DNA from: a virus
Lineage: Duplodnaviria; Caudoviricetes
Reading direction: 5' to 3' (one strand)
Virus record (IMG/VR): IMGVR_UViG_3300011437_000016
Coordinates: 1-39,474 of that record
DNA length: 39,474 nucleotides
Shown: piece by piece, positions 1 through 39,474 of the stretch
How positions within the stretch are numbered: position 1 is the first letter of the stretch
Layout of the letters: each line of letters opens with the position of its first letter
Program-made: the position numbers and the translations under genes
Notes under the pieces: generated by a model
Database searches by the model: none
What the model saw: the letters and a program-made list of their open reading frames with translations, nothing else
What the model was told of the DNA's origin: nothing

Positions 1-65
1 CCCAGTTCTACTTTGTCAATTCGTCCCCCACTCCCTTGGGGTATTGCCTTTACCTGGACGTTGTG

Positions 66-656
66 CTAGGACGTCACGCCTTGCTTCCTTGGCTGCCTTA
101 CAACGCATGGCCGTCCCATCTTGTCAATGCCTACCCTGTAAGTAAGGCCACGCGTCAAACGAGCGTCTACTATTTCGAATGCCTTGACGGCATCCTCTAC
201 ATCCTTATCGGCCTGCTGCTGTGCAGTCTCCTGCGCGAGCCACGCGCTGTACTTCGTTTCCCACTCGCTGGCTGTGAGTCGGCGCGCGTCAACTGGACAC
301 AGCCACCGCAGGAACGACCCGGCGCGCACCACGCCCTCTGTTGGTGGGCAGGCTTTGTGTAAACGGGAACCCTTTCTACTGTTGCAGCGTCTACACGCAG
401 CTCGAATATTCCACTTGATGTTTCTGCCGCCTTTACTCAGTGGGATCCAGTGATCGATTGTGAGCTTCTTTGCTTCTCTACAATATTCGCAGCGGTTATG
501 GGCACTCTCAATCACATCTAACCAATCGATTAATTTAAGCCGACCGCCGCCGCGCATTATGGAGGCCGCCACTCGGTTTGCTTCGCGTTGTAGGTTGTAG
601 CCAGGATTACGTTCCAACCACGCGAGTTCTTCTGGTGTGAAAATACGCTTAGCCAT
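66..656 (-). CDS. HNH endonuclease (CxxC...DH...GG.N...N...CxxCN)
   Basis: Motif CEYC-x7-IDHWIPLSKGGRNIKWNIRAACRRCNSRKG. The ATG at 656 is preceded by GGAGG. The segment is visibly more AT-rich than the rest of the window. Confidence 0.85.
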   Translation of the reverse strand: MAKRIFTPEELAWLERNPGYNLQREANRVAASIMRGGGRLKLIDWLDVIESAHNRCEYCREAKKLTIDHWIPLSKGGRNIKWNIRAACRRCNSRKGSRLHKACPPTEGVVRAGSFLRWLCPVDARRLTASEWETKYSAWLAQETAQQQADKDVEDAVKAFEIVDARLTRGLTYRVGIDKMGRPCVVRQPRKQGVTS

Positions 657-23553: not shown

Positions 23554-24579
23554 TCAGCCGGTGCGCCGGTACCCGAACTCGGCCGCGTTAAACCCCGCCT
23601 CGGTCCACGCCGCGCCCGTCCCCGGATTGGTGGCCTGAATCTGCAGCAGCGTGGCGTACGTCGTGGACGGACTCAGATCGGTCCCCACGTAGTCCACGCC
23701 GCTCTGCCGCACCACGGGCGCGAGCGTGGCCGCGCCCGCGTCGGTCTTTTTCGCCGAGAGACAATGCTGGACGCCAAAGATGGTCGCGCCCACGGCGGGC
23801 GCATTCTCGACGACGAACGTATCGGTCACGCCCGCCGCCGTGGCACTGGTGTAGTCGGTGTCGTCATTGGGCGTGGCGTCATCGACACACTGCCAATTCG
23901 CGCCCGTCGAGGGCGTCCACCCCGTCGTGGCTCCGGCGGCGGTCGGCCGACACGCATCGACGCGACAGTCCCCGAGGAAGGTGTTCCCCGGGGCGGCCCC
24001 CGCCCCGTCCGAGACGTAGAGATCATCGAAGGTCGTGAACGAGCCCAGATAGATCACGGTCGGCACGCCGGTCCCACCATTGCGCGTATCCACCCCAGTG
24101 GCCGACGCGACCTCCAGGCCGTTGACGCGCACCGCCACGCTCCCGCCGGGGGCGTCGGCAATGAGCACCAGCCATTCGACGTAGTAGGTCACGCCGGTCG
24201 TCACGAGGCCGGCCGCTGATTCACAGAGCAACGTCGGCGTCCCGCCATAATCCCACCCGGTGCCCGCCATCCGGCCCACGTTCACTTTGCCGTCTGACGT
24301 GAAGTAGAGCTGCACATGGGTGCCCCCACTTTCCCCGATCATCATCAGCCGCCAGATCGTGCCCACGGGGTTGGTGTTGGTCACCGCCGCGCCCATGATG
24401 ATCGTGGACGAGCTGGCGGCAATCCCTTTGGCCGCGTAGTGATCCGCGCCGTTGCCGACCAACCCGCCGCTCCCACGTCGTCCCGCCGCCGCGCCAATCG
24501 TCACCCCGTTCATGCTCGTCCACTTCTCGGTGAGGTCGGCTGTGGCGAGGTGGTCGAAACTGTCCATGAAGAGAATCAC
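23554..24579 (-). CDS. putative virion protein (LamG/concanavalin-like)
   Basis: ILFMDSFDH...TYYVEW...VRVNG...FDDLYV...NPGTGAAWT...AEFGY. AGGAG RBS. Confidence 0.6.
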   Translation of the reverse strand: MILFMDSFDHLATADLTEKWTSMNGVTIGAAAGRRGSGGLVGNGADHYAAKGIAASSSTIIMGAAVTNTNPVGTIWRLMMIGESGGTHVQLYFTSDGKVNVGRMAGTGWDYGGTPTLLCESAAGLVTTGVTYYVEWLVLIADAPGGSVAVRVNGLEVASATGVDTRNGGTGVPTVIYLGSFTTFDDLYVSDGAGAAPGNTFLGDCRVDACRPTAAGATTGWTPSTGANWQCVDDATPNDDTDYTSATAAGVTDTFVVENAPAVGATIFGVQHCLSAKKTDAGAATLAPVVRQSGVDYVGTDLSPSTTYATLLQIQATNPGTGAAWTEAGFNAAEFGYRRTG

Positions 24580-24589
24580 GGCGTGTCTC

Positions 24590-25792
24590 CTAGGGGGCCA
24601 ACGTCGTCGGGTTGGCGGTCTTGGTGCGATACGTTTCCGGCACCGCGTAGTTGACCGGGAGAAAGACCGCCGTCGTCAGCGCGAGATCGGTGCGCGCTTC
24701 GCCCCACGACCAGAGTGGATTGATCGGCGCGGCGGTCGGTTGGATGTACCAGCCGATGGACCCGTTCACGCCATGGGCGATCCCAGCCGTGATCTCAAAC
24801 ACAGCGGGCGTGATGAAGTCCTCGCCCTCTGGGCCATACTCGCCGAGCGAGGTCATCCCAGTCAGGATGAGCGCGCCATCGGCGGCGGGCGTGACACTGC
24901 CGGTCGCCTGCGGCGACGTGGTCGGCCCACTGTGGCCGGTCCCGTTCTCTTCCTGGTAGGCCACGACCCCGGCAAACGCCATCACGATGAGGGGCGTGAG
25001 CGTCCCACTCAGCGAAAAGCTGTGCCCGTACCCGACCGTGGGGTTGAGGCAGTAGTAGAGCCGCATCCGCACCGTCCCAGGAGCCCCGTACGCCGTGAGC
25101 GGCGTCCACAGGTTGCTTTTCGAGTCGGTGACGACGAGCGTCGGCCCGTCCACGTACGGGACGCCCACGACGATCAAGGTCGCGCCCACCGTGCTGATCG
25201 GCGCCGTTGGGCCGGATTCGGCGTCAGGGAGCGTGATCACGAGCGTGATCGGCGGCGGCGGATCGTGGACGACGACCACATCGTCGGGCTGGTTCTGTTC
25301 CGTCAGCGCGGTGCCCCAGAGCGTGAGGTTCGACGCGTTGACGGCGAGGCCGAGCACGAGCGCGAAGTACGACGCGCCGTCACCGGGGACCGGCCAGTAG
25401 CGGTCCTCGCGGAACCCATCGACCGAGGTGCCGCTCGCTTCATCCGTTTCCACCGGCAGGCCGAGCGGGCCGACGAACTCGAACAGATGCACGACGAACG
25501 CGCAGGCGACCGACGCCGTGACGGTGACGGTCGTGGCCCCGGCAAACGCGTGCGGGCAGCGCCACACCGACATCATCTGCGGTGGACTGCTGCCGGGGCC
25601 GAAGGTCGCGATGTTGGTGTACGCGTTCCCGCGATCATCGGTCACCGTGAGCGTGAACGGCGCGACGTTCGCCATCACCGCGACGAGGAGCGACGAGCCC
25701 ACCGTGACCGGCGACGTGAACGCGTGCGAGAGCGCCATCGTCACCCCCGCCGAGGGCGCGGCCGTCGTTTGCAAGCGGTCAAACGGCGGCAT
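24590..25792 (-). CDS. putative tail/head fibre protein with two related beta domains
   Basis: TDDRGNAY and TDSKSNLW repeats. The start overlaps the upstream stop. Confidence 0.55.
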   Translation of the reverse strand: MPPFDRLQTTAAPSAGVTMALSHAFTSPVTVGSSLLVAVMANVAPFTLTVTDDRGNAYTNIATFGPGSSPPQMMSVWRCPHAFAGATTVTVTASVACAFVVHLFEFVGPLGLPVETDEASGTSVDGFREDRYWPVPGDGASYFALVLGLAVNASNLTLWGTALTEQNQPDDVVVVHDPPPPITLVITLPDAESGPTAPISTVGATLIVVGVPYVDGPTLVVTDSKSNLWTPLTAYGAPGTVRMRLYYCLNPTVGYGHSFSLSGTLTPLIVMAFAGVVAYQEENGTGHSGPTTSPQATGSVTPAADGALILTGMTSLGEYGPEGEDFITPAVFEITAGIAHGVNGSIGWYIQPTAAPINPLWSWGEARTDLALTTAVFLPVNYAVPETYRTKTANPTTLAP

Positions 25793-25986
25793 CAGGCCGA
25801 CTCGCGCGTCGGCGTGGCGCCTCGACGCGTCGGATATTTGGCTTCGTTGATGACGTCGCCACTCGGCCGGAGCTGCGGCGCATCGCGTTGACAGGACTCG
25901 CAGCGGTGATCGCCGACCTGACGGCAGGCGTCGTTGAGACACTCAGCCGGCGTCTTGCAGTCCACGCATTGGAACAGGTGCGACAT
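25792..25986 (-). CDS. small Cys-rich protein
   Basis: CVDC-x5-C-x4-C...CESC. Tightly packed after the portal gene. Confidence 0.5.
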   Translation of the reverse strand: MSHLFQCVDCKTPAECLNDACRQVGDHRCESCQRDAPQLRPSGDVINEAKYPTRRGATPTRESA

Positions 25987-25988
25987 CG

Positions 25989-28103
25989 CTACATCGTCCT
26001 GCCGGCGTTGTTCTTGAGGTTCCCCGTGACCCTCGTCTGGTGTTTATCCACCGGCTCGATCCCTTGCGGGGCTTTGATCGGCTCGGGCGGCATCGGGGGC
26101 GCGGGCGGCAGCTCCATCCCGTAGAAGGTTTTTAGGTACATCGCTACGCCGACATATTGCGGACTGAGCGGGTTGAGATCGTCGCCCCGGATCGAGAACG
26201 TCGCCTTCGGCGGCTCGGGTTTCGCGGGTTCCGGTTGTTTGATCAAGGGCGCCCTATCGTGTCCGAACGCGTCACAGAGCAAACCGGCAACTTCAGCTTG
26301 GTTGAAGTACGGATTGTTCGAAACTAGATTTACGAACCTTAAAGTTTTCTCGCGTTCCTGGGCGGCATCGACGCGCACGCTGCTGTCGGGGTTGAACGTG
26401 AACAGGTAGTCGCCCGCAATCGTCGTGCGGTCCCATTGCGCGAACCGTTTCGCGCCGTCCTCGCCGACGATCTCGACCAACTCCTGATCGGTCGCGAAGA
26501 GCTGCACCAGCGAGAAGAGTTTCTTGCAGCCGCGCGCGTACTGCGTCAGCAACCGCACGCGTTCCTTCGCTTGTCTCGTTTCGGTGGCGCGCTGGATCAA
26601 GCTCGCTTCGTACGCGGTGTCGGTGTCGTCGGATCCGAGCCCCTGCTGGTTCGCGCCAGACGCCGTCAACCGGTCGATGTCGTTCTGCGTGATCTGGTCG
26701 AAGGAAAAGTTCTCGGTCGGAAAGTGCGCGATGGCGAGCGCCCGCAGATCGCTCTCGGCGATGGGGCCCTCAAATTTTATTAAGCTCTGAATTTCTCCTG
26801 ACTCCAGTTGCTCGACCGTATCGCGCGTGAGCGCGGGGCTTTTCACGTTGATGCCGCGCATCGGCATCGAGCGCCGCCGCTGCTGCACCATCTGCGAGCG
26901 GCCCAGGCTCTTCTCGTCGGCGATGTCGCGCACCACGCTGCAGTCGGACTTGGGGAACGCCGAGTTGACGCGCGAGCGCAGCGTGAAGACGTGGATCGGA
27001 TAGCCGCGCATCCCGCCGGTAAAGCGGCCCATTTTGTCGAAGCGCTGCCAGGGCGAGTTCTCGTGGACGACGACGCCCTGGCCGTTGCGTCCGCTCTTCT
27101 TCGCGAGCACGACGAGCCGCCGGATGCGCTCGGGGTTCAGCTCCGTCGCGTCGTAGAGTGCGGCGCGATACCAGATCTCGTAGCCGCAGGCCACGCTGCG
27201 CTTCTCGAGCGCATCGCGGTCGGCGGGGGCGACGAGCCGCTCGGACCAGTTCAGGTCCGAGAACGACGACGGCTCGACGCCATACCGCCGCACCAGTTCC
27301 TCGGTGTCCGCATAAAAGCGGAACGCCAACCACGGCGCGGCGTCAAAGCGGGAGCTGAGAAAGCCCACCGGGGAGAGAAAGTCGTCAGGGCTGATGCGGT
27401 TCCAGTAGTAATCGCACCAGAGTTTCTGCGGGTTCGTTTCCGTTTCCGGCTGGCCGTCTGGGCCGAGCGCGAGCGTCTCTTCGCTCTGCGGCCCGCCCGT
27501 GACCGGATCGATCAGCGGCTGGCCGCTCATCGGATCGAGCTTCGGCACCGGGGCCCCGGTCAGCGGATCGGTCACCGGTTCCATGCGGCCGGTCGGCGTC
27601 TTCACGTCCTGGGTGACGCTCTCGTAGCCGATCTTCGTCACGCCGATCCCGGCGGGCACGAGGATGTCGGAGAGTACCTCGTCCATCATCGCCACGGCGT
27701 CGATCTTGTCCTCGCCGAGGAGCGTGTCCATGATCGCCTTGACGATGGGCGCGACCGGCCGCGTCTCGGGCCGCGTGCCCTTCACCTGGAGCGCCGGCTG
27801 CTGGTGAAAGAGCTGGGGCTTCTTCTGCTCAACGGTATAAAAGCCCACATTCACCGAGATGGTGTCGTTGGCGTGGACGCCCGGGAGCGAGGGCCGGTCG
27901 CCGTCGTAGCGGCTCATGTTGGCGCGCCACGCCGGGACTTCTTCCTTCAACCGCTCGACCGCCGCGTCGATCTCGGACGACCAGAAGGCTTCCGAGCCGT
28001 AGCCCTCGTCAGGGAGGGGAATCTTTAACTCGGAGGGGGGCTCACTCGCGGTGGTGACGGCGCGATCCACGCGTTTAGACGGTTTCGTGCGGCGTTTCGC
28101 CAT
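25989..28103 (-). CDS. portal protein
   Basis: 704 aa with GIGVTKIGY, RISPDDF, YEIW and DTAYEASLIQ, downstream of the terminase genes. Confidence 0.85.
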   Translation of the reverse strand: MAKRRTKPSKRVDRAVTTASEPPSELKIPLPDEGYGSEAFWSSEIDAAVERLKEEVPAWRANMSRYDGDRPSLPGVHANDTISVNVGFYTVEQKKPQLFHQQPALQVKGTRPETRPVAPIVKAIMDTLLGEDKIDAVAMMDEVLSDILVPAGIGVTKIGYESVTQDVKTPTGRMEPVTDPLTGAPVPKLDPMSGQPLIDPVTGGPQSEETLALGPDGQPETETNPQKLWCDYYWNRISPDDFLSPVGFLSSRFDAAPWLAFRFYADTEELVRRYGVEPSSFSDLNWSERLVAPADRDALEKRSVACGYEIWYRAALYDATELNPERIRRLVVLAKKSGRNGQGVVVHENSPWQRFDKMGRFTGGMRGYPIHVFTLRSRVNSAFPKSDCSVVRDIADEKSLGRSQMVQQRRRSMPMRGINVKSPALTRDTVEQLESGEIQSLIKFEGPIAESDLRALAIAHFPTENFSFDQITQNDIDRLTASGANQQGLGSDDTDTAYEASLIQRATETRQAKERVRLLTQYARGCKKLFSLVQLFATDQELVEIVGEDGAKRFAQWDRTTIAGDYLFTFNPDSSVRVDAAQEREKTLRFVNLVSNNPYFNQAEVAGLLCDAFGHDRAPLIKQPEPAKPEPPKATFSIRGDDLNPLSPQYVGVAMYLKTFYGMELPPAPPMPPEPIKAPQGIEPVDKHQTRVTGNLKNNAGRTM

Positions 28104-28260
28104 CGCGGCGTCAACCCTCCCCGGACTCTGTCGGAGCCGCCGATTATCGACTGCGGATCCGCCGATGAACAGCGAAAATCCAGTCTATACCCCGCTGCAA
28201 GCGGGCTCGGGCGGGTGGGATTGTGGTGGGACGGAAGGGACTTAAGCGACAGACACACCA

Positions 28261-28282
28261 AAGGCCGGGTTGCCCCGGCCTT
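28261..28282 (-). terminator. intrinsic terminator after 28304-28516
   Basis: Minus-strand AAGGCCGGG-GCAA-CCCGGCCTT followed by TGGTGTGT. Confidence 0.55.
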
Positions 28283-28303
28283 CAGTGGATCGTCACGAAA
28301 GTA

Positions 28304-28516
28304 CTAGCGACCGAGAAAACGAAGGAGGACGGTGAGGATGCCGAGGTTGAGCGCGATCACGGTCCCGAGCATCCACTTGATCACGGCCATGTCACTCCGA
28401 AGCGTCGCCATCTGCTGCTCGTAGTTGGCGACTTCTTCTGCTGCCTTCTGGGCGAGTGCCGGATCAATCCCGGTGGCCGCGAACGCGTCGTGCAGTGCGC
28501 CGAGTCGGAGCGCCAT
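28304..28516 (-). CDS. small DUF1640-like coiled-coil/TM protein, paralog of 3506-3706
   Basis: MALRLGALHDAF...LAQKAAEEVANYE...IKWMLGT. Confidence 0.7.
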   Translation of the reverse strand: MALRLGALHDAFAATGIDPALAQKAAEEVANYEQQMATLRSDMAVIKWMLGTVIALNLGILTVLLRFLGR

Positions 28517-28517
28517 G

Positions 28518-28973
28518 TTAGCTACAGACGCGCGCAGCGCCGGTCCCGATGCAGATCACGCCGGTCCCGTAGTTCATGTACGTGCCGGACGAGCTGACGG
28601 TCCACAGATTGCCCTGGCTGTCAGTGCCGCGCTGCGAGCCGTCGGGCTGGATCGTCGTGCGCCAGAGGCTGCCGGTGTTCAGGTTGCTGCCGCGCACGGT
28701 CGTCGTGCCAGAGGTGTCGCGGTCCCACGAGTAGCGGTTGCCCGAGCGCCAATCGTAGGTCGAACCCGATGTCGGCTTGACCGGCTGGATCGGGGCGTAC
28801 GGCACGTAGACCGGGTAGGTCGGGACCGGCGGCGGCGTGTAGCGGTACGGGGTATAGACGTACGGTTCGTAGACAGGCGTCGGGTCCGGGCGCGTCGAGC
28901 GCCGCGACTGGGCCTGGGCGACGGACGGGGTGACGACGGCGAGGGCGATGACGACGGGGAGCCACTTGTTCAC
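28518..28973 (-). CDS. putative exported protein (signal peptide, Pro/Tyr linker, beta-hairpin repeats)
   Basis: MNKWLPVVIALAVVTPSVAQA has an AxA cleavage motif. GGAGG RBS and its own promoter. Confidence 0.7.
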   Translation of the reverse strand: MNKWLPVVIALAVVTPSVAQAQSRRSTRPDPTPVYEPYVYTPYRYTPPPVPTYPVYVPYAPIQPVKPTSGSTYDWRSGNRYSWDRDTSGTTTVRGSNLNTGSLWRTTIQPDGSQRGTDSQGNLWTVSSSGTYMNYGTGVICIGTGAARVCS

Positions 28974-29006
28974 AGGAAACCTCCAACACGGATTAACGAC
29001 CCCGTG

Positions 29007-29026
29007 AGTCTATCACGACCGCTCGT
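29007..29026 (-). promoter_or_regulatory. operator ACGAGCGGTCGT plus -10 box TAGACT
   Basis: 12-mer at 29015-29026, then 2 nt and TAGACT (29012-29007). Confidence 0.7.
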
Positions 29027-29655
29027 TAGCGAGTAGCGTAGCGCAACCCGCGCCGGATGGCGTCGATCTCGTGCCCGATGGCGTCGGGCGGCAGCGTCTT
29101 GACGATCTTCGTCGGCGGCAGCGGACGCGCCATCACCCAGTAGCGCAAGGCCGCGGCCGGATATTCATCCGTCGTAGAGTCAATGTCATCAGGCTGCTTC
29201 GCATCGGACACGAGCGTCAGGAACGTGTCGAGGAAGTAGACGCAGTCGGCATGCACCTGGAGCGAGGGCGCGTCGAAGATGCGCGGCACTTCGCGGTCGT
29301 CGTCGCGGAAGGTCCGCACGTCGAGCCACGCGCGGATCCGCGCCCACCCGTTGACGCGGTCCTTGTCGCCCGGGGTCATGTGCAGGCCACGGGCGCGGAA
29401 GGTTTCGCTCACGGTTTCGCCGCGTGAGGTTTTCGTTTTCGGAAAGATCTCCGGTTGCGCGATCACGTCGATCAGGCGCGGGATCCCCTTCTCTTTCAGG
29501 AACGCGTGGATGCGCGTGGCGGCGACATCGGGGGTGGTTTTGTAAAACGTCAGCTCGTGGCGCAGCACCGCGCGCCCATCGGTCTGCACCGCGATGAACC
29601 CCATCCAGCCGCGCGCGGCGTAACTCCAGTGGAGGGCCCCGTAGTGATGAATCAT
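29026..29655 (-). CDS. stand-alone terminase large subunit C-terminal (RNase H-like) domain, catalytically degenerate
   Basis: Retains DGR...EL, GETVSETF, DRVNGW, C..F..T...LVSD..QPDDID and ALRYWVMARP. The expected DWG, ADP and EDHxxDALRY read HWS, AQP and DEYPAAALRY. Confidence 0.75.
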   Translation of the reverse strand: MIHHYGALHWSYAARGWMGFIAVQTDGRAVLRHELTFYKTTPDVAATRIHAFLKEKGIPRLIDVIAQPEIFPKTKTSRGETVSETFRARGLHMTPGDKDRVNGWARIRAWLDVRTFRDDDREVPRIFDAPSLQVHADCVYFLDTFLTLVSDAKQPDDIDSTTDEYPAAALRYWVMARPLPPTKIVKTLPPDAIGHEIDAIRRGLRYATR

Positions 29656-29915
29656 TTTTGGTCCCGCCGCGCCCTGATGGCCCGCAACTCCACGATGTAG
29701 TCGAGGATCTCCTGTGTCTGGGAGTCAGGCATCAGCGTGATCAGGTCGAGCAGTTCCGTTTGGAGGGCCTTCGGTCGTGGGAGGTGGTCCCGCGCCCACG
29801 CCAACCACTGCTCGGGGCTGAACTCGTAATAGCCCGTCGGGCCATTGGGCGCGAGTTGCTCACCGAGCATGAGCGCGGCATCGCGCCAGTCCAAGACGGT
29901 CTTGGCGAACAACAT
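29652..29915 (-). CDS. hypothetical protein
   Basis: GGAGG RBS. Its stop overlaps the ATG of the nuclease-domain gene. Confidence 0.6.
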   Translation of the reverse strand: MLFAKTVLDWRDAALMLGEQLAPNGPTGYYEFSPEQWLAWARDHLPRPKALQTELLDLITLMPDSQTQEILDYIVELRAIRARRDQK

Positions 29916-29929
29916 GGGTCAGGCCTCCC

Positions 29930-30028
29930 TCACCACATCACCCACGTCAGGATCGCCGTCCCCGCCGCACACAGGAGGATCCAGATCACGACCGCCGGCA
30001 GCACGTACTCGCGGCCTTCGTCCTCCAT
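29930..30028 (-). CDS. 32-aa single-TM peptide
   Basis: MEDEGREYVLPAVVIWILLCAAGTAILTWVMW, with TGATG coupling and GGAGG RBS. Confidence 0.45.
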   Translation of the reverse strand: MEDEGREYVLPAVVIWILLCAAGTAILTWVMW

Positions 30029-30252
30029 CACGCCTCCCAGGCGCGGGCGCGGGCAAAGCGCAGCGGCACCTCGAACTCGTCGCCGCATTCGCGGCAGCGA
30101 TAGGTCTGCCCCGCTTTCATCTGGCGCGGCCCGTCGCCGATGATCGGCAGGATCACGCGGTGTTTGAGCGCGAGCGGCGCCATCGGATCGAGCCAGACGT
30201 GCGCGTGCGCGGTAGACCAGGAGAGGGGGTACTTGGGCAGGGTGGCAGCCAT
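30028..30252 (-). CDS. small Zn-binding hypothetical protein
   Basis: HAHVW...YRCRECG. AAGGA RBS before the ATG at 30252. Confidence 0.5.
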   Translation of the reverse strand: MAATLPKYPLSWSTAHAHVWLDPMAPLALKHRVILPIIGDGPRQMKAGQTYRCRECGDEFEVPLRFARARAWEA

Positions 30253-30378
30253 GGGACGTTCCTTCCAACCATGTCTACTGGCTCCAACCTCCAGCGACCG
30301 AGTGAACGACGCGGGGAGACGACCTACTCGAGATACTGCGGGTTCATGCGCGGCCACACCCAGAGTCGCCCGTCCTCC

Positions 30379-31485
30379 TCAGGCGGGTTCTGCGGTGGTG
30401 AGATGGATCGCCGAGTCCCAGTTCTCGAAGAACATCCCGGCGTAGATGTCCCAGGATCCAAAGCGCAGTTGCTGGTAGCGCGCCGCGGAGAGCCCACTGA
30501 GCGCGGTTTGCTCGTACGACGGGTCCAGGTACGGGTTGTCCTCAAGGGTGCAACTGATATGGCCGTATTGTGACGCATCGTATTGCGGGAAGAGATCGCG
30601 GTCGGGATTTTTTTTAATATACGCCGCGACTAAGGCCCTCATGGCTCTTCCTCCAGGGTTGCTGAAGAGCCGCGTGCGCCCGGGCGGCAGGCCCAACCGC
30701 TCGATGGCCGCCCGCGCCGTGGCCGCCCCGCGTGCGCGAGACGTGATCTGGTTAATCGCGTCAGGCAAAAACGTCACCGCCTCATCGAAGCAGACCTCCG
30801 ACCACTCTGCACCCAAATGCTGGGGGATGTCAGCGGCGACGTCGCAGTAGCCACTGAAGATCTTCGCGTCGAGCCCTTCGTCGTCGCCGTGCGAAAACGT
30901 CACCGTGCGATTTTTGTACGTCGCATCGCCGAGCGCCTTGGCTTCCGCGCCACAAAACTGCAGATGGTTCTTCTCGAGTTCGCCGTACGTGCAGCGCAGG
31001 AGCAGCGCCCGGTACCCCGGCACCAGACGGCACCGCCGGTACAAGCACCAGCGGGCGCCGACACTCTTCGACACGCCCGCCGCGCCGGCAATCAGCAGAT
31101 GCGGCACGGGCGACTCGTCGATGTCGATCTGGAGCGGCAGCGGCAGGAACAGGATCGGGCCGCTCGAGTGCCCCGCCTTCCGCATCGCGGCGGCGAGTTG
31201 GCGATCCGCGCACTCCCCTGTCGTGCAGATCCAGTGCTTCTCGTCCATTTTCCGAAACGGCTGATGGCACCACCGGCAGCGACTCACGGCGTGGACTAGG
31301 GGCCCGCGATGGACGGCCGGGGCCAGGGCGTCTCCCACGAGCGGGGGCGGCAGCGGCTCGGGCGTGGGCCGCGCGTCACGCGCCGGCCGCGCTACGGGCT
31401 CGGTGTCGAGGGCAACGGCAGAGGCGGCGCCTCGCTCGCGTTCTCGCTTGGCTTTGATGGCTTTCCAGGGGATGAACTTCGCCAT
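30379..31485 (-). CDS. terL: terminase large subunit, ATPase domain only, with N-terminal Zn finger
   Basis: Walker A-like GAAGVSKS, ALLLRCTYGEL, Walker B VCFDEA, motif III FSNPGG and DNPYL...LRFGSWD...GMFF, followed by a stop. AGGAG RBS. Confidence 0.85.
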   Translation of the reverse strand: MAKFIPWKAIKAKRERERGAASAVALDTEPVARPARDARPTPEPLPPPLVGDALAPAVHRGPLVHAVSRCRWCHQPFRKMDEKHWICTTGECADRQLAAAMRKAGHSSGPILFLPLPLQIDIDESPVPHLLIAGAAGVSKSVGARWCLYRRCRLVPGYRALLLRCTYGELEKNHLQFCGAEAKALGDATYKNRTVTFSHGDDEGLDAKIFSGYCDVAADIPQHLGAEWSEVCFDEAVTFLPDAINQITSRARGAATARAAIERLGLPPGRTRLFSNPGGRAMRALVAAYIKKNPDRDLFPQYDASQYGHISCTLEDNPYLDPSYEQTALSGLSAARYQQLRFGSWDIYAGMFFENWDSAIHLTTAEPA

Positions 31486-32288
31486 GCCTGCTCCTGCTGC
31501 ATCTCGCTCAGACGTTTTGCCACCAACGCGCGAATGTTCTTGGGTGGATCCACGACCTCCGGTGCCCACTTCGGCGCTCGACGCTGGGTAGTCGGCGGAT
31601 CAGGCGGCACTTGCGACGGCGCGGTCGGCGGCATCTCGGCCGCGCGACGGGTGACCTCGGCCAGGAGGTCGAGCGTCTCGGTGTCGGTGTGTCGGCGCAT
31701 TGGCACCTCCGGGGACGGCACGGGGCGATGGGCGACGTGACGACGGGGAGCCGAGGCTTGGGATGGGTGCATTTTCCGATGCCCAACGCAGCCGCGCAAG
31801 ATCGCGTCGATCCGCTCGACCTCGGCGACGGTCATCACCCGCAGCAGATAGCGGCTCGCGAGGGTCTTCATCGCGTCCCGAATCTCGCCCTCGTCCTGGC
31901 GGGCGTCGAGCCCGAGATACGCAATTTTTTGCAGATGCCCGTAGATGGCCGTCTCGCCGTCCGTCGCCCGCTGTTTCGGGACGATGCGTTCCGGCAACTC
32001 GGCGCGGGTGCGAACGGCGCGCAGCGCTGCTCTTTCGGGGGTGTTGATCCCGGGGGGGATTAAGGGAACGCGCGCTGGGGGGCCTGAAGCGTTTGCGTTT
32101 GGGCAAAAAAAATTGCGCCGAGGGCGGGATTTTCCGGGGCCGGTGCGATTGCAGCGGGCACGCGGACTGGGGGCGCGACGGTGCCGTCGGCGGGTCACCC
32201 CCGAGTTAAGGCCACCCAGGCGGGCGGCAGCGCGGCATTGGGCCGCGCGTTCCGGTGAGCCGTTCCGAACAACTCCCTGCAAAGACAC
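31392..32288 (-). CDS. hypothetical protein; candidate small terminase or replication initiator
   Basis: N-terminal AARLGGLNSGVTRR (KGG-like) and a helical core, upstream of terL. The start is uncertain (32288 GTG or 32282 TTG). Confidence 0.4.
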   Translation of the reverse strand: MSLQGVVRNGSPERAAQCRAAARLGGLNSGVTRRRHRRAPSPRARCNRTGPGKSRPRRNFFCPNANASGPPARVPLIPPGINTPERAALRAVRTRAELPERIVPKQRATDGETAIYGHLQKIAYLGLDARQDEGEIRDAMKTLASRYLLRVMTVAEVERIDAILRGCVGHRKMHPSQASAPRRHVAHRPVPSPEVPMRRHTDTETLDLLAEVTRRAAEMPPTAPSQVPPDPPTTQRRAPKWAPEVVDPPKNIRALVAKRLSEMQQEQAWRSSSPGKPSKPSENASEAPPLPLPSTPSP

Positions 32289-32351
32289 CCCTCCCGTCAG
32301 GACAACAACCTCAGCGTTTTTAAGGACAGCTCACGCCTGAGGTGCGAGTTG

Positions 32352-32459
32352 CGTTCCGTTCAGGGGTTGATCTAGACTGGCGTCCAACCGCACCGCGTCT
32401 AGATCGTTCCCCTAAGCGGAACGACACCGCCGTCCCAATTGTCCAGTTGGGGCGGCGGT
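32352..32459 (+). ncRNA. structured intergenic element with two long hairpins, possible antisense RNA
   Basis: CGTTCCGTT..AGGGG..GATCTAGAC / GTCTAGATC..CCCCT..AGCGGAACG (32352-32423) and ACCGCCGTCCCAAT / GTTGGGGCGGCGGT (32426-32459). G.U wobbles favour the + strand. Confidence 0.45.
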
Positions 32460-32522
32460 TCTGTTAGTGGGCGATGTTACGCCCCGTTTTCTACCCGCGT
32501 CAACCTTCCCTCCTGAAGAACC

Positions 32523-33008
32523 TCACTTTCGTGGACGTCGTCGCCGTCGCCGTCGCTGGTCGAACGGCGCGGGCGGCGGGGCGCTCGTCACCGACATCCG
32601 CTGCTTCCACGCGGCCATCGCCTCTTCGACCGCCATCGCCTCTTCGCCCTCGACCGTCGGCCCCATCTCGGCCGCGATCTCGTCGGCATACGCCATGAGA
32701 ATCCTGTGCTTCAGGTCGGCGCACGCTTGTTGATCCGCCTCGTCGTGTTCATCGATGGGCCGCACGAGGGGCCAGTTGCGCTCCTCGCGGTACACCGTGA
32801 CATACGGCCGCGAGGGGAAGGACACCGACGGCGAGTCATAGCCCACTCGCGCCTCCCAGATGCCAAACCCCACGAAGCGGATCCCTTTGAGCGGTCCCGT
32901 GATGAAGTGCAGCTCCGCGTGCGCGAGTAACTGCGGCGGGCTGTTGGGATACGGCGCTAAGAGTTCGATGATGAAGTCAGGCAGCGGCACCTCTGGTTGA
33001 TCGCTCAC
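32523..33008 (-). CDS. SpoVG-like putative nucleic-acid-binding protein
   Basis: LAHAELHF..GPLKGIRFVGFGIWE...VSFPSRPY...PLVRP. Confidence 0.55.
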   Translation of the reverse strand: MSDQPEVPLPDFIIELLAPYPNSPPQLLAHAELHFITGPLKGIRFVGFGIWEARVGYDSPSVSFPSRPYVTVYREERNWPLVRPIDEHDEADQQACADLKHRILMAYADEIAAEMGPTVEGEEAMAVEEAMAAWKQRMSVTSAPPPAPFDQRRRRRRRPRK

Positions 33009-33250
33009 GACTCCCCCACCAGCAGCGCGACGGCGTCCTCGATGACGCCCTGGATGGTTTTGTTGGGCAGCTCCGCGCCCTTCCGGCGCGACACCTCGGC
33101 GAAGATCTGCTGCCGCGTCTTCACTGAGAGCTTCAGCGTGGTGTGCCGACGCACCGGCTTCGGCGGCTTACTTTTAGCGCTTGCGCCGGTTGCTACGCTT
33201 GCGCCGAGAGGTTCAGTTGCGTAGCTATCAAGTCTCGACTTCGTTCCCAT
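33005..33250 (-). CDS. ParG-like (RHH) partition partner
   Basis: Small ORF overlapping the parA end, with a flexible N-terminus and a TTLKLS strand followed by two helices (IQGVIEDAVALL). Confidence 0.55.
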   Translation of the reverse strand: MGTKSRLDSYATEPLGASVATGASAKSKPPKPVRRHTTLKLSVKTRQQIFAEVSRRKGAELPNKTIQGVIEDAVALLVGES

Positions 33251-33873
33251 TGTTGGACTCCCTGCATCAGTGCTTCAAACTCGCCCACGCTCTTGCTCGA
33301 CGGGACGCACTCGCGCACCGTCAACCCTTGGGTATAGGCCTCGATGTTGGCTACTAGCCGCGTGATGCCGGGAAAGACCGGCACGAGGTAGCGGCCGAGG
33401 AACGTGGGGAGGTCGCGGCTGACCGCCGTGCGGTCGAGCAGCGTCGGGACAAACGCGATCTGTAGCGCGGGGTTGATCTTCTGTGCGCTCCGCAGTTCGA
33501 AGAGCGTTTCGACGGCCGAGTCGATGTCTGACGTGGACGGGCCGACCGGCACCAGCGCGAGTTGGGCGATGAGAGACGCCTCGAGCGCCGGATCGGCGAA
33601 CCCGGGCGGGCAGTCGAGCAGCACATAGTCCGCGCCGGCCGCGCCGACCGCCGCGCGAAAGGATCCGCGCAGTTGCCGGTTGATCGCCATGGTCTGCACC
33701 CGGTCGTGCAGGACGCCCTGGCCGCGCCGAGCCCAACGGGTCAGGCTCTTCTGGTCGTCGAGGTCAAACGCCACCACTGACTGTTTCGCCCGAAGCAGTT
33801 CTCCCAGCAGATTCCCGGTAATCGTCGTTTTCCCGCATCCACCCTTTTGCTGAACAATCGCCACTATCTGCAC
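33193..33873 (-). CDS. parA: ParA partition ATPase (short, type Ib)
   Basis: QKGGCGKTT, DLDDQKSL, YVLLDCPP and LVPVGPS. GTG start with AGGAGG RBS. Confidence 0.9.
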   Translation of the reverse strand: MQIVAIVQQKGGCGKTTITGNLLGELLRAKQSVVAFDLDDQKSLTRWARRGQGVLHDRVQTMAINRQLRGSFRAAVGAAGADYVLLDCPPGFADPALEASLIAQLALVPVGPSTSDIDSAVETLFELRSAQKINPALQIAFVPTLLDRTAVSRDLPTFLGRYLVPVFPGITRLVANIEAYTQGLTVRECVPSSKSVGEFEALMQGVQQWERSRDLIATQLNLSAQA

Positions 33874-34294
33874 ATGAAGACCTCCTACCGCTATAGCGGC
33901 TTGTAGTGTTGTCGGCACTTTACACTGTTTCGGATAGAGATTGACGCCACTCATACGATGAGAGCGGGTCTACCCGCCATGGGTGTGGGACGAAGGGAGG
34001 GTCGCGCGCTGGCCCTGAAGACGGCGTACCGTACCTCCCACTTCCGCTGGGAAACCATGGCGGGCCCCCCCTTGGCCGTTGACGCCGCCCGTAGGATCGA
34101 AGTCCGGGGCCGCGCCGGGGCAGAACATGCGTGGAGATTTGGCCTCTCTGCCGTGGTGCTCGGGGGAGCGAAATTGCGCCGGCCGACCCCTCTTGCACGA
34201 CGCGATACGATCAGCGCACTCCGGGTTGAACTAAGTACGACGCGCGAGTCTCTGGTTGGAGGCGATTCGCGGGTTGACAGGGAGAGCCTCCACC

Positions 34295-34486
34295 ATGGAA
34301 CTATCGGCCCTCATCTCGGCGGTCATAGGCTTAATCATCCTCGGTTTGGCCTTATGGTTGATTGAGCAGCACGTCCCGCTTTCTCCCCCCATTCGCGTCG
34401 TCATCCGCGTCGTCGTCGTCCTGTTCATCGTCCTGTGGCTGCTCAAAGCGTTTGGCCTCTGGAGCGGCCCGGTCTTCCGCAGATGA
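34295..34486 (+). CDS. small two-TM membrane protein (Thivi_2564-like, possible holin)
   Basis: LIILGLALWLIEQHVPLSPPIRVVIRVVVVLFIVLWLL with a basic C-terminus. Confidence 0.65.
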   Translation: MELSALISAVIGLIILGLALWLIEQHVPLSPPIRVVIRVVVVLFIVLWLLKAFGLWSGPVFRR

Positions 34487-34668
34487 TCGCCGCGCTCCTG
34501 CAACTCATCGGGTTTTGTCGCCATCGGGCGATGTGGCGTGAGCACCGCGAGGTCGAGGGCCGCCTTGTCGCCTGCTACATCTGCGACTGCGGCCACGTCC
34601 AGCCGATTGTGAAGCGGACGGCGGATGAGCACCTGAAAGCCTTTCCTGCGCGCCCTGGGCGGGTCTGA
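34483..34668 (+). CDS. small Zn-binding hypothetical protein
   Basis: FCRH...CYICDCGH. Coupled to the genes on both sides. Confidence 0.55.
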   Translation: MIAALLQLIGFCRHRAMWREHREVEGRLVACYICDCGHVQPIVKRTADEHLKAFPARPGRV

Positions 34669-36338
34669 TGGCCTACGTACGCTGTGACGTCGCGAGCAAT
34701 GGCCCGTACGAGTACCGGTTCACGGGCCAGTGGTTCCCGCGCTGCGACGTGAACCCCACGGGCAGTTGGGTGGCCGCCGACTGCGACGAGAGCGGGAGCC
34801 GGGTCTACGTGAAGACCTCGGCGGGGGAGCGCCACGACCTCGGGCCGCGCCACCCCGACAACCCAGTCTGTGTCCGCTGGGTGCCCGGGCGCAGCGTGTT
34901 CAAGGTCGCCTGGGTGGACAACACCCCCCAGGGGCGCTCCCTCGACATCGACGGCCATGGGTTTCGGATCCCCGGCAGTGAGGGGACGTTCGATGCGTCG
35001 GGCGCGGGTTCGCAAGGGATCCGCGACATGGACGAGCTGGGGACGATCTACTTCAAGGACGCGACCGACGCGCGTGACGTCGATGGGCTCACGCTGCTGC
35101 ATTGGCGCGAGCGGGATGATTTTATTGTCGGCGTGCTCGCGCACACCTGGATCGGGGTCAGCGTCTTCGACAAGTTCCACCACTCGTGGTATCGCGCGTT
35201 TCCGCACGACGTGCAGCTCCTGCCGGGAGTCGCCAACAACGGCACGGTGTCGGTGACCGGCGAGGGCGGCGGCTTCATCGAGATGACCGACTGGCTCAAG
35301 GTGCCGTTCGATCCGCACGCGGTCACGCTGCCGCCCGTGGACGCGGTGCCGCTGCTCCAGCGGCCCTTCGGCTGCGGCTGCTTCACGTTCAACGATGCCG
35401 CGTGGATCGGGAACCTCACGCTGCCGATCCGGCCCGTGGCCTCCGCCTTTCCCGAGGCGCTGGTGATCGCGAGCGGCGACTTCACGCCGTGCGCGGGCTG
35501 GTTTGAGAGCGTCGATCCCGAGACGGTGTGGGGCGTGTACGCGGGCGCGGCGGAAGGCTTTCCCATCGACCAGGCGGTCGCGCTCGGGCGCGAGGTGGCC
35601 GCGCCCTTCGCCCGGGGGCTGGTCATCTACCAGGACAGTTGGCCGCTCACGGCGGAAACGCTGTCGTATGTCGGGCCCGATGACCTCGCCCTCGTCCTGC
35701 TCATCCGCGAACCGCACGAACCGCGCGAGGCGTTCAAGGCCCGGGCGAGCCAGCTCCCGCCCGACGCGTGGGTGTCGCTCAACCTCAAGGACGATCCGGC
35801 CCTCGCGGTCGAGACGTTCATCGCGGCGGCCGAGGTGGCCCGCGACTTGAACTGGGCGGGGTGGTTCGTGTTCGCCTCCGGGCGCAGCGATGTCGCGTGG
35901 GACACGCTCACGCCGTATCTCGAGCGGTTTCTCTCGGGTATTACCGGCACGCCGCCCGCGCTGACGGTGACGCCCGTCGATCCGGTCGATCCCGTCGATC
36001 CGGTGGATCCGGTCGATCCCACGGACCCGGTCGATCCCACGGAGCCCACCTATCCGATCCCGGAGGACTTGATGAACCGCAACGTGGTGTACGTCGATAA
36101 CTGCTGGCACGAAGTCGAAGAAGTCCCGCATCCCGATGCCGGTCCCGAGCATGGGCCGGTCGTCGGCGTCGTGCGCGTCAAGGACTCGCTGATCTTGAAG
36201 ATCCGCAACGACGGGCGCGTGGAGTTTGAGCAGGGGAGTCCCGGCGCCGACGAGCGCTGCATCCCGGTGCCTGGGGGGTATGTGGGTCTGCGCGAGAAGA
36301 CCGCCGTCGTCAGGAGAGCGGGTCCGTGGACAGTCTAG
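34668..36338 (+). CDS. multi-domain hypothetical protein with a PVD-repeat linker
   Basis: 556 aa, TGATG-coupled, with (PVD)n separating a small C-terminal beta domain. Confidence 0.65.
   Translation: MAYVRCDVASNGPYEYRFTGQWFPRCDVNPTGSWVAADCDESGSRVYVKTSAGERHDLGPRHPDNPVCVRWVPGRSVFKVAWVDNTPQGRSLDIDGHGFRIPGSEGTFDASGAGSQGIRDMDELGTIYFKDATDARDVDGLTLLHWRERDDFIVGVLAHTWIGVSVFDKFHHSWYRAFPHDVQLLPGVANNGTVSVTGEGGGFIEMTDWLKVPFDPHAVTLPPVDAVPLLQRPFGCGCFTFNDAAWIGNLTLPIRPVASAFPEALVIASGDFTPCAGWFESVDPETVWGVYAGAAEGFPIDQAVALGREVAAPFARGLVIYQDSWPLTAETLSYVGPDDLALVLLIREPHEPREAFKARASQLPPDAWVSLNLKDDPALAVETFIAAAEVARDLNWAGWFVFASGRSDVAWDTLTPYLERFLSGITGTPPALTVTPVDPVDPVDPVDPVDPTDPVDPTEPTYPIPEDLMNRNVVYVDNCWHEVEEVPHPDAGPEHGPVVGVVRVKDSLILKIRNDGRVEFEQGSPGADERCIPVPGGYVGLREKTAVVRRAGPWTV
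35973..36050 (+). repeat. 9-bp coding tandem repeat (Pro-Val/Thr-Asp)n
   Basis: CCSGTSGAT units encode PVDPVDPVDPVDPVDPTDPVDPTEPT. Confidence 0.85.
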
Positions 36339-37585
36339 AACACGACTCCGCCCTCGGGTGGTGGTTGCAGTCTCAAGCTGGGGCGGCCGAAGCGATCCCA
36401 CGTCCCAAAGTCGTGCCGCTGACGCGCAAGGGCGTCGAGGTGGTGCGGCCAGACGGTTCGATCTGGAAGTATCGCGGCATCACCGCGTTTCGCCAGCCGG
36501 AACTCTACGCCCTGGGCGAGAAGGGTTGGCTCGAGGACTACTACGGCTGGGCGGCCGGCCTGGGCGCGAACACGCTGCGCGTTTTCCTGATGTGGCAGAA
36601 CACGAAATGGTGGCCGCACTCGCGTGCGAATTATTACGACCTCCTGTGGGATGCCTGCGAGCACGCGGAACGCGCGGGATTTTACGTCCACATGGTGGGC
36701 TTTTGCGATCAGGTCGAGAACTCCGACGTCCTCTTGAACCGCGCCGACCAAGACGAACACATGGAGCAGTGCATCGCGATCACGCGCTCCCGGGACAACG
36801 TCCTGCTTGAGATTGAAAACGAATCGTTCAAGAACGGGAACAACGCGCACGCCGACCGGTTTCCCTCGTCGATGTTCGACGGCATTCTCGCAATGCGCTC
36901 GACGTGGGCCGATGGCGAAGACCCGTCGCTGGGCGGGTGGTTGTCGCTTTCAACGAAACACATGGACCGTGGGACCGAGTGGACAAGAAAGCCGAAAGTG
37001 TGTCACGAGGTTCAATACGAGGGGCTCGGTACGTATCCACCGGCCCGCATTCCCTCATTGAGCGGCGAGCCCGAGCGCATCGGCAACGGGCAGGGCATGG
37101 TGACGACACCCAGGCAGCACGCCGATAACGCCGCCTGCACCGAGTTGATGGGCCTCGGCGGGTGTTTGCACGGTGGGTACTCCAGCTTCGACAGCGATCA
37201 CGACAGCGATCTGCAGAACTGTCGCGGTACCGGATCCGCGAATGCGATGGCGTGCGCCCAAGCGGTCGCCGATGTGTGGAAGTCGAACGTGTGGGATGTA
37301 CGCGTCGGCGGGGCGGAACATCTCGACAGAGGGTTCGAGGACAACAGCGGACCCTCCCCTGTGTTTCACGCGGATCGGTTCAACACGGATTCTCCGTGGA
37401 ATCAGCCAGAGACGGGCTGCTGCCGAACCTACTTCAAGCTCGTGGATGGCGTGTATTACGGATTGAGCGTAGACCCTGCGCCGCAGTGGCCTGGGTATCA
37501 GCCGCAGAACGGCTGGCGCATCGTCGCACGCGGGGGGTGGGACGGCGACGGACACGGAGGCAACATGATCCGGTGTGCCCAATGA
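36326..37585 (+). CDS. glycoside hydrolase, clan GH-A (GH5-like) TIM barrel
   Basis: LGANTLRVF, acid/base motif NVLLEIENE and candidate nucleophile SLSGEP. Confidence 0.6.
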   Translation: MDSLEHDSALGWWLQSQAGAAEAIPRPKVVPLTRKGVEVVRPDGSIWKYRGITAFRQPELYALGEKGWLEDYYGWAAGLGANTLRVFLMWQNTKWWPHSRANYYDLLWDACEHAERAGFYVHMVGFCDQVENSDVLLNRADQDEHMEQCIAITRSRDNVLLEIENESFKNGNNAHADRFPSSMFDGILAMRSTWADGEDPSLGGWLSLSTKHMDRGTEWTRKPKVCHEVQYEGLGTYPPARIPSLSGEPERIGNGQGMVTTPRQHADNAACTELMGLGGCLHGGYSSFDSDHDSDLQNCRGTGSANAMACAQAVADVWKSNVWDVRVGGAEHLDRGFEDNSGPSPVFHADRFNTDSPWNQPETGCCRTYFKLVDGVYYGLSVDPAPQWPGYQPQNGWRIVARGGWDGDGHGGNMIRCAQ

Positions 37586-37878
37586 GCGCGTTTATGTTTG
37601 TGCTCGGCATCTACGCGGCGACGGGCGCGACGGACATCCTGTCGAGTCACTACCTGCTGGGCCGGCCGGGATTTCACGAGGTCGGCTTCGCGCCGTTTCC
37701 CTCGCGGACGGCGAATGCCTCGGTCAAACTCGGGCTGGTCGGCGTGAGCGTGATCGGACTCTACCGCCTCCACGGTCGGTGGCCGAAGGCGGCGTGGGTG
37801 ATCGCCATCGTGGCGCTGGGGCTCGAGGCGATTGCCGTCGGGCGCAACATTCGGTTCACGAGACATGAACCACGGTGA
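37582..37878 (+). CDS. small multi-TM membrane protein
   Basis: Three hydrophobic segments and an ATGA overlap with the GH gene. Confidence 0.6.
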   Translation: MSAFMFVLGIYAATGATDILSSHYLLGRPGFHEVGFAPFPSRTANASVKLGLVGVSVIGLYRLHGRWPKAAWVIAIVALGLEAIAVGRNIRFTRHEPR

Positions 37879-37897
37879 ACGACGGGCGCAAGAAGTA

Positions 37898-37917
37898 ACG
37901 AGCGGTCGTTATATAGT
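37898..37917 (+). promoter_or_regulatory. operator ACGAGCGGTCGT plus -10 box TATAGT, likely leaderless
   Basis: 12-mer at 37898-37909, then 2 nt, TATAGT, 6 nt and the ATG at 37924, with no RBS. Confidence 0.75.
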
Positions 37918-37923
37918 AACGCC

Positions 37924-38709
37924 ATGAAACACGTCGTGATGTTCTCGGGCGGCGTCGGCAGTTGGGCGGCCGCTCGGCGCGTCGTGGACACGCATGGGCC
38001 CGACGACGTCACGCTGCTCTTCACCGACACGCTGATCGAAGACGAGGACTTGTACCGCTTCCTTGAGGACGCCGCGCGTGATCTCGGCGTCCCGGTGACA
38101 CGGATCGCGGAAGGGCGCACACCCTGGGAAGTGTTCTTCGATGAGCGGTTTCTCGGGAACAGCCGCATCGACCCGTGTTCCAAGATCCTGAAACGCGAAA
38201 TGGCCGCCCGCTGGCTCACCGCCCACTGTGACCCCGAGGACACGCGCGTCTACGTCGGCATCGACTGGACCGAATCGCATCGCTACACGCGGCTGGCGGC
38301 ACGGCACGCGGCCAACGGGTGGACGTACCTCGCGCCGCTCTGCGATCCGCCGCTCCAGATGAAGCAACAGTTCCTCGATGATCTGCGTGCGCGCGGCATC
38401 GCGCCGCCCAGGCTGTATCGCATGGGGTTCAGCCACAACAACTGCGGCGGCTTCTGCGTGAAGGGTGGACACGGCCACTTCGCGCTCTTGCTGCAGCATC
38501 TACCCGACCGCTACCGACTGCACGAGGCGAAAGAGCAGGAGCTGCGCGCGTATCTCGGCAAGGACGTCTCGATCCTGACCGACACGATTGGCGGCACCAA
38601 ACGCCCCCTGACGCTCCAGGCCTTTCGCGAACGCATCGAGGCGGGGTTTGAGTTCGACCGCTTCGACCTCGGCGGCTGCGGCTGCTTTGCCGGGGCAGAA
38701 ACGGTGTGA
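37924..38709 (+). CDS. phage PAPS-reductase-like (PP-loop) protein
   Basis: VVMFSGGVGS PP-loop, LFTDTLIEDEDLYRF, CSKILK, YRMGFSHNNCGGFCVKGG and C-terminal GGCGCF. Confidence 0.8.
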   Translation: MKHVVMFSGGVGSWAAARRVVDTHGPDDVTLLFTDTLIEDEDLYRFLEDAARDLGVPVTRIAEGRTPWEVFFDERFLGNSRIDPCSKILKREMAARWLTAHCDPEDTRVYVGIDWTESHRYTRLAARHAANGWTYLAPLCDPPLQMKQQFLDDLRARGIAPPRLYRMGFSHNNCGGFCVKGGHGHFALLLQHLPDRYRLHEAKEQELRAYLGKDVSILTDTIGGTKRPLTLQAFRERIEAGFEFDRFDLGGCGCFAGAETV

Positions 38710-38710
38710 G

Positions 38711-39055: not shown

Positions 39056-39074
39056 ACGAGCGGTCGTGTAAGAT
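39056..39074 (+). promoter_or_regulatory. operator ACGAGCGGTCGT plus -10 box TAAGAT
   Basis: 12-mer at 39056-39067 and TAAGAT at 39069-39074. Confidence 0.65.
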
Positions 39075-39095
39075 AGGCAGCAGTATGGAAACGCC

Positions 39096-39362: not shown

Positions 39363-39425
39363 AATGCTTACCACATACGCACTGAATGCTTACCAAGCAC
39401 GCATAATGCCAGCACTAGGCACGCA
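39363..39425. repeat. 22-bp-period direct repeats next to an AT-rich tract
   Basis: AATGCTTACCA at 39363 and 39385; ACGCA at 39377, 39399 and 39421; followed by AGAAAAATAGTAAATAAT. Confidence 0.7.
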
Positions 39426-39474
39426 AGAAAAATAGTAAATAATCCTTGACAATACACCGCACCCAGGCTAGAGA

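Follow-up and report, generated by a model that had tools for sequence, protein, structure and literature searches.

A two-gene large terminase whose nuclease-fold half has lost the catalytic aspartates in a clade of ~40-kb tailed phages

The window analysed here (W) is the whole of the 39,474-bp virus record IMGVR_UViG_3300011437_000016 (Caudoviricetes), a member of a soil/sediment clade of ~40-kb phages. In W, the large terminase subunit (TerL) is divided between two genes, an ATPase half and, 723 bp further downstream, a standalone pseudonuclease with the fold of the TerL RNase H-like domain:

30379..31485, minus strand: TerL ATPase half, 368 residues, ending LRFGSWDIYAGMFFENWDSAIHLTTAEPA before the stop codon; PHROG979 TerL, E 1.4e-14
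29026..29655, minus strand: standalone TerL RNase H-fold pseudonuclease, 209 residues; H9, Q67 and A168 at the three catalytic Asp positions; ratio of nonsynonymous to synonymous substitution rates (dN/dS) 0.05-0.24

For comparison we used metagenomic phage records, TerL loci and TerL proteins, given G-, L- and P-numbers, respectively, and we call a genome or record dead if its TerL nuclease site, judged from sequence, is without the catalytic aspartates. An independent unitig (22.8x, from a run that may be the source of W) covers W 1-39429 and shows no differences from W over 24500-39429, nor over the stretches compared overall; we therefore ruled out an assembly error as the cause of the split.

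The open reading frame (ORF) of the ATPase half carries an N-terminal Cys-rich motif, Walker A (GAAGVSKS), Walker B (VCFDE) and a coupling motif (SNPGG), and by these motifs it is an ASCE (additional strand, catalytic E) ATPase of the TerL type. It stops directly after the interdomain linker, as a preliminary description of this DNA had proposed and as the PHROG979 match and the C-terminus bear out, and its C-terminal tail, FFENWDSAIHLT, corresponds to that former linker. The same description had called the Walker A motif atypical, which was mistaken: the fused relative L082, with an intact nuclease, carries an identical GAAGVSKS, so the ATPase looks normal, and other fused intact-nuclease relatives have GAAGASKS (P0130, L098) or GAAGVAKS (P0069). 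One ATPase ORF of the split clade (L018:6116-8437, 773 residues) contains a large in-frame insertion after profile position ~53, which is probably an intein.

The pseudonuclease sequence gave no match in Pfam, PHROG or PDB sequence searches. The top 14 structural matches of its AlphaFold2 model (pLDDT 80.7) were all terminases, the best being D6E TerL (Z 15.7, root-mean-square deviation 2.6, 151 residues aligned), followed among others by P22 (Z 13.2), SPP1 (Z 12.3) and T4 (Z 11.8), with concordant results from Foldseek, confirming the earlier assignment of this ORF to the TerL RNase H-like domain. Through fused relatives, the active site could be placed as well: a profile of 45 fused homologues matches D6E TerL (E 4.5e-21), and their motifs DWG, ADP and DDHxxDAxRY align with DYG, DPS and NDHQLDADRY of D6E. 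At the aligned motifs the pseudonuclease reads HWS, AQP and DEYPAAALRY, so that all three catalytic aspartates have been replaced, by H9, Q67 and A168, as had been claimed from the sequence alone. Lacking the three acidic metal ligands, the protein appears to be derived from TerL, and we do not class it as a working terminase.

To place these substitutions among homologues, a hidden Markov model (HMM) of 19 close homologues was compared with 1.84 billion representatives, yielding 1442 matches; among the best 150 of these, the top 26 were standalone proteins (138-245 residues), followed by fused TerL (430-900 residues). A word-indexed search for longer forms had returned none among 7991 candidates, a misleading result, since the full HMM search did find fused relatives. 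Active-site residues were counted in the 45 closest standalone and 65 fused homologues of an alignment of 169 sequences, the remaining 59 rows consisting of fragments and of short proteins at a greater distance, in some of which the site is intact. At the beta1 position, the standalone proteins have H (26), R (8), F (5), Y (3) or a gap (3), with no acidic residue in the 42 that have a residue there; at the beta4 position they have Q (34), N (5), D (4) or another residue (2); and at the last catalytic position 12 different non-acidic residues occur and acidic ones in 0/45. All three acids are present in 51/65 fused homologues, and none of the three in 5/65.

This arrangement is conserved. Each of the 13 split records in IMG/VR (12 distinct phages, five of them at least 39 kb) has one ATPase gene and one dead nuclease gene, and a second complete TerL, which was looked for, was found in none of the 13. 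The pseudonuclease evolves at a dN/dS of 0.05-0.24 (10 pairs of 5 sequences), similar to the portal gene at 0.16-0.24 (3 pairs). Low dN/dS, together with the acidic counts of 0/42 and 0/45, supports the proposal of a selected non-cutting role rather than decay, and a decayed prophage was rejected on the low dN/dS and on the conservation of the split across close relatives. GTDB genomes yielded no prophage belonging to the split clade; the single capsid match there was a contig of a Gemmatimonadales metagenome-assembled genome (MAG) whose TerL is split and aspartate-bearing. Cultured phages gave matches below 60% identity only.

A FastTree phylogeny of ATPases (96 rows) places the 13 split sequences together in a single clade with support 1.0, branching from within the fused intact proteins, and so shows on the aligned sequences that they share one origin. 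Degraded sites also turn up among fused proteins in no fewer than four other parts of this tree (P0078/85; P0096/120/148; P0132; P0114), so nuclease loss recurs. An independent fused-dead lineage, G057 (L112, L114-L116), is a linear 43,653-bp genome, 100% complete by CheckV, whose only TerL is degraded. A tree of nuclease domains (123 rows) separates G011 and G012 from the main dead clade, whereas the ATPase tree, which we preferred for its longer alignment, unites them. Degraded fused sites often show Asp replaced by Arg, His or Lys. The same TerL family is represented on a Gemmatimonadales MAG contig (L113:3785-5498, in neither tree), apparently by two ORFs with the catalytic Asp kept, which may reflect either a genuine split or a frameshift.

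Between the two halves in W lie three small ORFs, and the portal gene follows downstream of the pseudonuclease, as in relatives:

30028..30252, minus strand: inserted zinc-ribbon ORF, 74 residues; weak PF09723
29930..30028, minus strand: inserted hydrophobic ORF, 32 residues
29652..29915, minus strand: inserted ORF, 87 residues; its stop overlaps the pseudonuclease start (ATGA)
25989..28103, minus strand: portal protein (P22-like)

The preliminary description had counted the three ORFs correctly; their translational coupling, which it also proposed, holds only in part, as the junctions from ATPase to pseudonuclease are a 126-nt gap, a 1-nt overlap, a 14-nt gap and the ATGA overlap. Across the split records the spacer ranges from a 4-nt overlap (L031, L051) to 3237 bp and the passenger genes differ, while the split ATPases always end near profile position 263. 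The zinc-ribbon ORF recurs between the halves in G001, G002 and L015; in L027 it is found upstream of the pseudonuclease. In L031 and L051 the halves are joined by an ATGA overlap with no insert, where a programmed frameshift is a conceivable alternative. An intron was ruled against by these two insert-free loci and by the lack of an Rfam intron match in W, L013, L015 and L021.

Structure prediction suggested that the two halves come together again. The predicted complex of ATPase and pseudonuclease scored 0.84, compared to 0.07 for the best control, at a mark reached by 116/157 solved pairs and 2/215 mismatched pairs, a pass that may reflect likeness to solved full-length TerL rather than binding. 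Runs shared at least 96% of contacts with a partner pLDDT of at least 82, and the predicted interface is formed mainly by the ATPase tail (348-368) on pseudonuclease residues 104-113 and 130-136, with H361, invariant in 8 split ATPases, in the tightest contacts. In this model the tail would re-dock the pseudonuclease and restore the fused architecture non-covalently.

The dead genomes also assemble alike at their ends, which in W are as follows:

1..80, no strand assigned: left genome end; TTGACA facing outward, 13 nt from the terminus; GTTGTGCTAGG motif
39395..39474, plus strand: right genome end; A-tract, then outward TTGACA-17-TAGAGA finishing at the last base; AAGCACGCA-type repeats in common with G001

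W, G001 and G002 are collinear and non-permuted, without terminal repeats, and the ends of W lie 52 and 63 nt inside those of G001. Where one phage was assembled more than once, the ends agree to within 4 nt (G012/G013) or 142 nt (G003/G008/L028), and the 22.8x unitig, from run X1 (which may be the source run), stops at both ends of W, on the left at base 1, with no branch listed. No circular assembly was seen for six dead genomes of at least 39 kb (W, G001, G002, G011, G012 and the fused-dead G057), compared to 4/6 distinct intact relatives of at least 36 kb (p about 0.03, one-sided, calculated by hand); the circles were evident from direct repeats (G018, G022), a 103-bp overlap (G028) and circular permutation (G054/G044), and the other two of the six, G030/G031 and G053, may be circular or linear.

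Outward-facing TTGAC[AG] occurs within 80 nt of 8/14 dead ends and 1/14 intact ends, at a frequency of 3.8% in random windows; these end counts exclude the fragment end G056-start and duplicate assemblies, and the terminal site went unreported in a built-in promoter scan, which is stricter. A 27+1+27 palindrome opens G001 and a 5+1+5 palindrome closes it; G057 opens with a stem of 10 bp and a loop of 18 nt, and in both genomes an outward TTGACA-17-TAnnnT-type site finishes at the stem tip. The opening stems of G001 (27 bp) and G057 (10 bp) are the terminal stems of at least 10 bp (2/14 dead ends; background 0.08%). A TGCTAG-containing motif lies 37-64 nt from 4/14 dead ends (W 55-72, G056 end, G012 start, G002 end) and from 0/14 intact ends (background 0.4%), and is possibly a terminal binding site. 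A further motif, CTGGGGGGGGGTATCC, was seen in the last 16 nt of G002 and at 23-38 of G008 (L039), reading inward from opposite genome ends.

Two further features of W could bear on how the ends are made and on the state of the genome:

4339..4788, minus strand: DUF1064 / PHROG190 Holliday-junction-resolvase-like nuclease, a candidate end-maker; limited among the dead records to W, G001 and G002
33005..33873, minus strand: ParA with a small partner

ParA scored above cut-off in 4/6 split records and 0/6 intact records, integrase was found in 0/6 split records, and a ParD-ParE toxin-antitoxin pair lies in the structural region of W (20107-20669, plus strand), shared with G001; as judged from gene content, ParA and ParDE suggest a plasmid-like state.

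We propose, with a probability of about 0.5, that these phages use a two-gene motor with a non-cutting RNase H-fold half to package a ready-made, unit-length linear genome. Replication, rather than packaging, would generate the unit-length ends, and selection on the terminase nuclease would therefore be lost once the motor need not cut, as has been proposed for phi29. The pseudonuclease has likely been retained to grip DNA without cutting it or to serve as an adaptor to the portal, and the domain could become a chain of its own, kept in place by the old linker. For the earlier suggestion that unit-length DNA is packaged without cleavage, the fixed, non-permuted ends provide indirect support.

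More tentatively, the ends may be covalently closed hairpins that a junction resolvase excises from palindromic junctions formed in replication, aided by the promoters that face outward at the termini; the odd-length palindromes of G001, with their different centres, would fit junction resolution better than the geometry of protelomerase products. In its widest form, this idea holds that a widespread group of tailed phages packages covalently closed, hairpin-ended unit-length genomes in poxvirus style, promoter-assisted and with no protelomerase, the nuclease having died repeatedly and here also become detached, which we regard as possible though less likely than not. If true, it would define a packaging class apart from the cos, pac, direct-repeat, Mu-type and protein-primed classes. 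In passages of PMC8956199, a poxvirus Holliday junction resolvase makes unit-length hairpin genomes with a promoter beside each hairpin; the likeness would be one of analogy only, with an unrelated virus and motor, and hairpins and resolvase dependence in the W clade are hypothetical.

Several observations weigh against the packaging of a ready-made linear genome. All end evidence comes from contigs, and the intact controls, retrieved by a DWG-containing pattern (with fused intact TerL in 40/41 loci so retrieved), are mostly fragments. The promoter motif was first noticed on 11/14 of the counted ends, with 2/3 ends positive in G056 and G057, which were retrieved afterwards. Neither end of W folds back, stems are shorter than 10 bp at 12/14 dead ends, and terminal fold-backs can be library artefacts. 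Cos-type cutting would leave fixed ends as well, as would an assembly that broke off at a structured origin. W is 42% complete by CheckV, although G002, close to it in size and gene order, is rated 100%. No protelomerase (PF16684) was found in 8 records, in a search where one control genome scored above cut-off and which a remote homologue could escape, and no protein-primed PolB (PF03175) in 12 records, in a search where no control genome did. By BLAST, no nuclease is common to all six dead genomes, the only universal genes being structural and terminase genes. Splitting also appears not to require aspartate loss, as L113 and BillyTP (PP978841) are split with aspartates kept, the BillyTP nuclease having Asp in GFDG, CDP and IDAA (motifs read by eye).

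The chief alternative is an outsourced cut, in which another nuclease, of phage or host (HNH, DUF1064 or similar), would cleave concatemers at one constant cos-like site, with the dead domain holding DNA or recruiting the enzyme. Such outsourced cutting would fit the fixed ends, a CGTCA common to both G001 ends that could be a filled-in 5-nt overhang, and the HNH genes between the halves in G001 and G003, HNH proteins reportedly being cofactors of terminases (attributed to Kala, 2014). We consider it less probable than the packaging of ready-made DNA: no nuclease is universal among the dead records (HNH 3/7, DUF1064 3/7, both also in the intact-nuclease record G030), nothing is inserted between the halves in L031 and L051, and no dead genome has a circle-closing read-through junction; the preliminary description, which had named the HNH and DUF1064 nucleases as possible cutters, is unsupported in this respect as a clade-wide rule. 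Alternatively, the genome might be circular or terminally redundant and packaged by headful with a borrowed nuclease, its fixed ends being artefacts of assembly at a structured origin: the ends are intergenic and repeat-rich, the right- and left-end genes of W are co-directional, as they would be across a circular junction, and G008 extends 22 nt beyond the motif where G002 stops. Relatives with the same structural module do assemble as circles, however, the source-like 22.8x unitig dead-ends with no branch listed, and the pattern is repeated in the independent lineage G057, making this explanation improbable.

That the domain still cuts through a rebuilt site is more improbable still. Acidic residues remain in loop 150-164, which has low confidence in the model (D156, D157, D159, D163, E164), D157 being at least 90% conserved in alignment A1 and E164 present in 28/45 standalone homologues, and His9 could in principle contribute. 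Position 9, however, varies between H, R, F and Y, position 168 takes the 12 non-acidic residues counted above, E164 is replaced by A, M or another residue in 16/45, and the loop acids also occur in intact relatives, where they are distinct from the three aligned ligands; by conservation rather than geometry, a compensating site built from them is thus unlikely. The slimmest chance falls to a mainly counter-defensive role, in which the dead separate domain would be an escape from, or a decoy for, terminase-sensing Avs, with cutting supplied otherwise. Avs3 reads active-site residues of the terminase, a solved Avs3-terminase complex exists (8dgc), and the nuclease site was lost several times in the TerL family of W; against this, the pseudonuclease is the only TerL nuclease-type gene, sits in the normal place before the portal, and counter-defence would leave the fixed ends and the identity of the cutter unexplained.

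Parts of this architecture have precedents. TerL of the D6E, P22 and SPP1 type (5oe8, 4dkw, 2wc9) and fused relatives (G018, G054) share with the W clade the ASCE ATPase motifs, the RNase H-fold C-terminal domain and the position before a P22-like portal, and the major capsid protein of G018 is 59% identical to that of W. The W clade differs from them in its two genes and the loss of three catalytic aspartates, and its assemblies are linear with fixed ends whereas fused relatives such as G018 and G054 assemble as circles. N15-like telomere phage-plasmids are similar in a linear extrachromosomal state (suggested for the W clade), ParA, toxin-antitoxin genes, the absence of integrase and possible hairpin ends, and differ in protelomerase, for which the W clade had no match in the 8 records searched. 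The DNA inside N15-like virions carries cos ends that an active terminase has cut.

Passages of PMC7672431 and PMC13595956 describe phi29 gp16 as having an RNase H-derived, DNA-binding domain without catalytic residues in its packaging motor, explained by unit-length genomes. By sequence and fold, the motor of W likewise contains a catalytically dead nuclease-derived domain; gp16 is one chain with a reduced fold, working with pRNA and a protein-primed polymerase, whereas W has the full fold in a separate gene, no protein-primed polymerase match in the PolB search above and no pRNA match in Rfam at gathering scores. In Arthrobacter cluster AY, according to parts of PMC11920828 and PMC12820723, ATPase and nuclease domains are encoded by two consecutive genes and the cos overhang is 9 nt, 3'; the two-gene layout is common to both, and cluster AY keeps the catalytic aspartates that the W pseudonuclease has lost.

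In the literature searched, with supplements and most subscription papers outside the search, we found no report of a TerL both split and dead; a split TerL with aspartates kept (cluster AY) and a vestigial nuclease (phi29) are known separately, and their combination appears, from the sequences, to be new here. According to PMC7672431, the C-terminal domain of terminases works as a nuclease in all but the phi29-like phages, and a passage of PMC7824862 calls the terminase nuclease universal. Here, a standard TerL lineage retains the whole fold under purifying selection and as the sole copy with the catalytic residues gone, and the loss recurs in fused lineages. The conserved new terminase variant is, in our view, real, and a new packaging class has a fair chance; if the linear fixed ends are real, they would point towards an undescribed route to packageable genomes. 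A natural two-piece motor also allows the non-catalytic jobs of the domain (DNA grip, portal docking, packaging start and stop) to be studied separately from cutting. Genomes of such phages are at risk of being scored as fragments, with CheckV values of 37-54% for W, G001 and G012; G002, similar to W in size and gene order, is 100% complete by CheckV.

Upstream of the ATPase gene lies a conserved ORF:

31392..32288, minus strand: GGxxSGxxRR motif; candidate small terminase or replication initiator

An ESM Atlas search gave a weak lead from this ORF to PriCT_1 (score 0.79) and no match for ORF 3723-4337. Elsewhere in W, an IS605-type TnpB / Cas12f-like gene (18866-20035, plus strand) lies inside the structural module and is absent from G001 and G002, and two paralogous ORFs of ~70 residues (MALRLGALHDA...; 3506-3706, plus strand, and 28304-28516, minus strand) form its only sizeable inverted repeat (106 bp, 79%). 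A PAPS (3'-phosphoadenosine 5'-phosphosulfate)-reductase-like gene occurs in W (37924-38709, plus strand) and G002, and G012 carries a cluster of NeuB, UDP-GlcNAc epimerase and cytidylyltransferase genes at 35664-40446. A 419-residue protein (W 36326-37585, plus strand) with no Pfam, PHROG or PDB match is present in 5/6 dead genomes and 0/2 intact genomes compared, and by eye it resembles a glycoside-hydrolase barrel.

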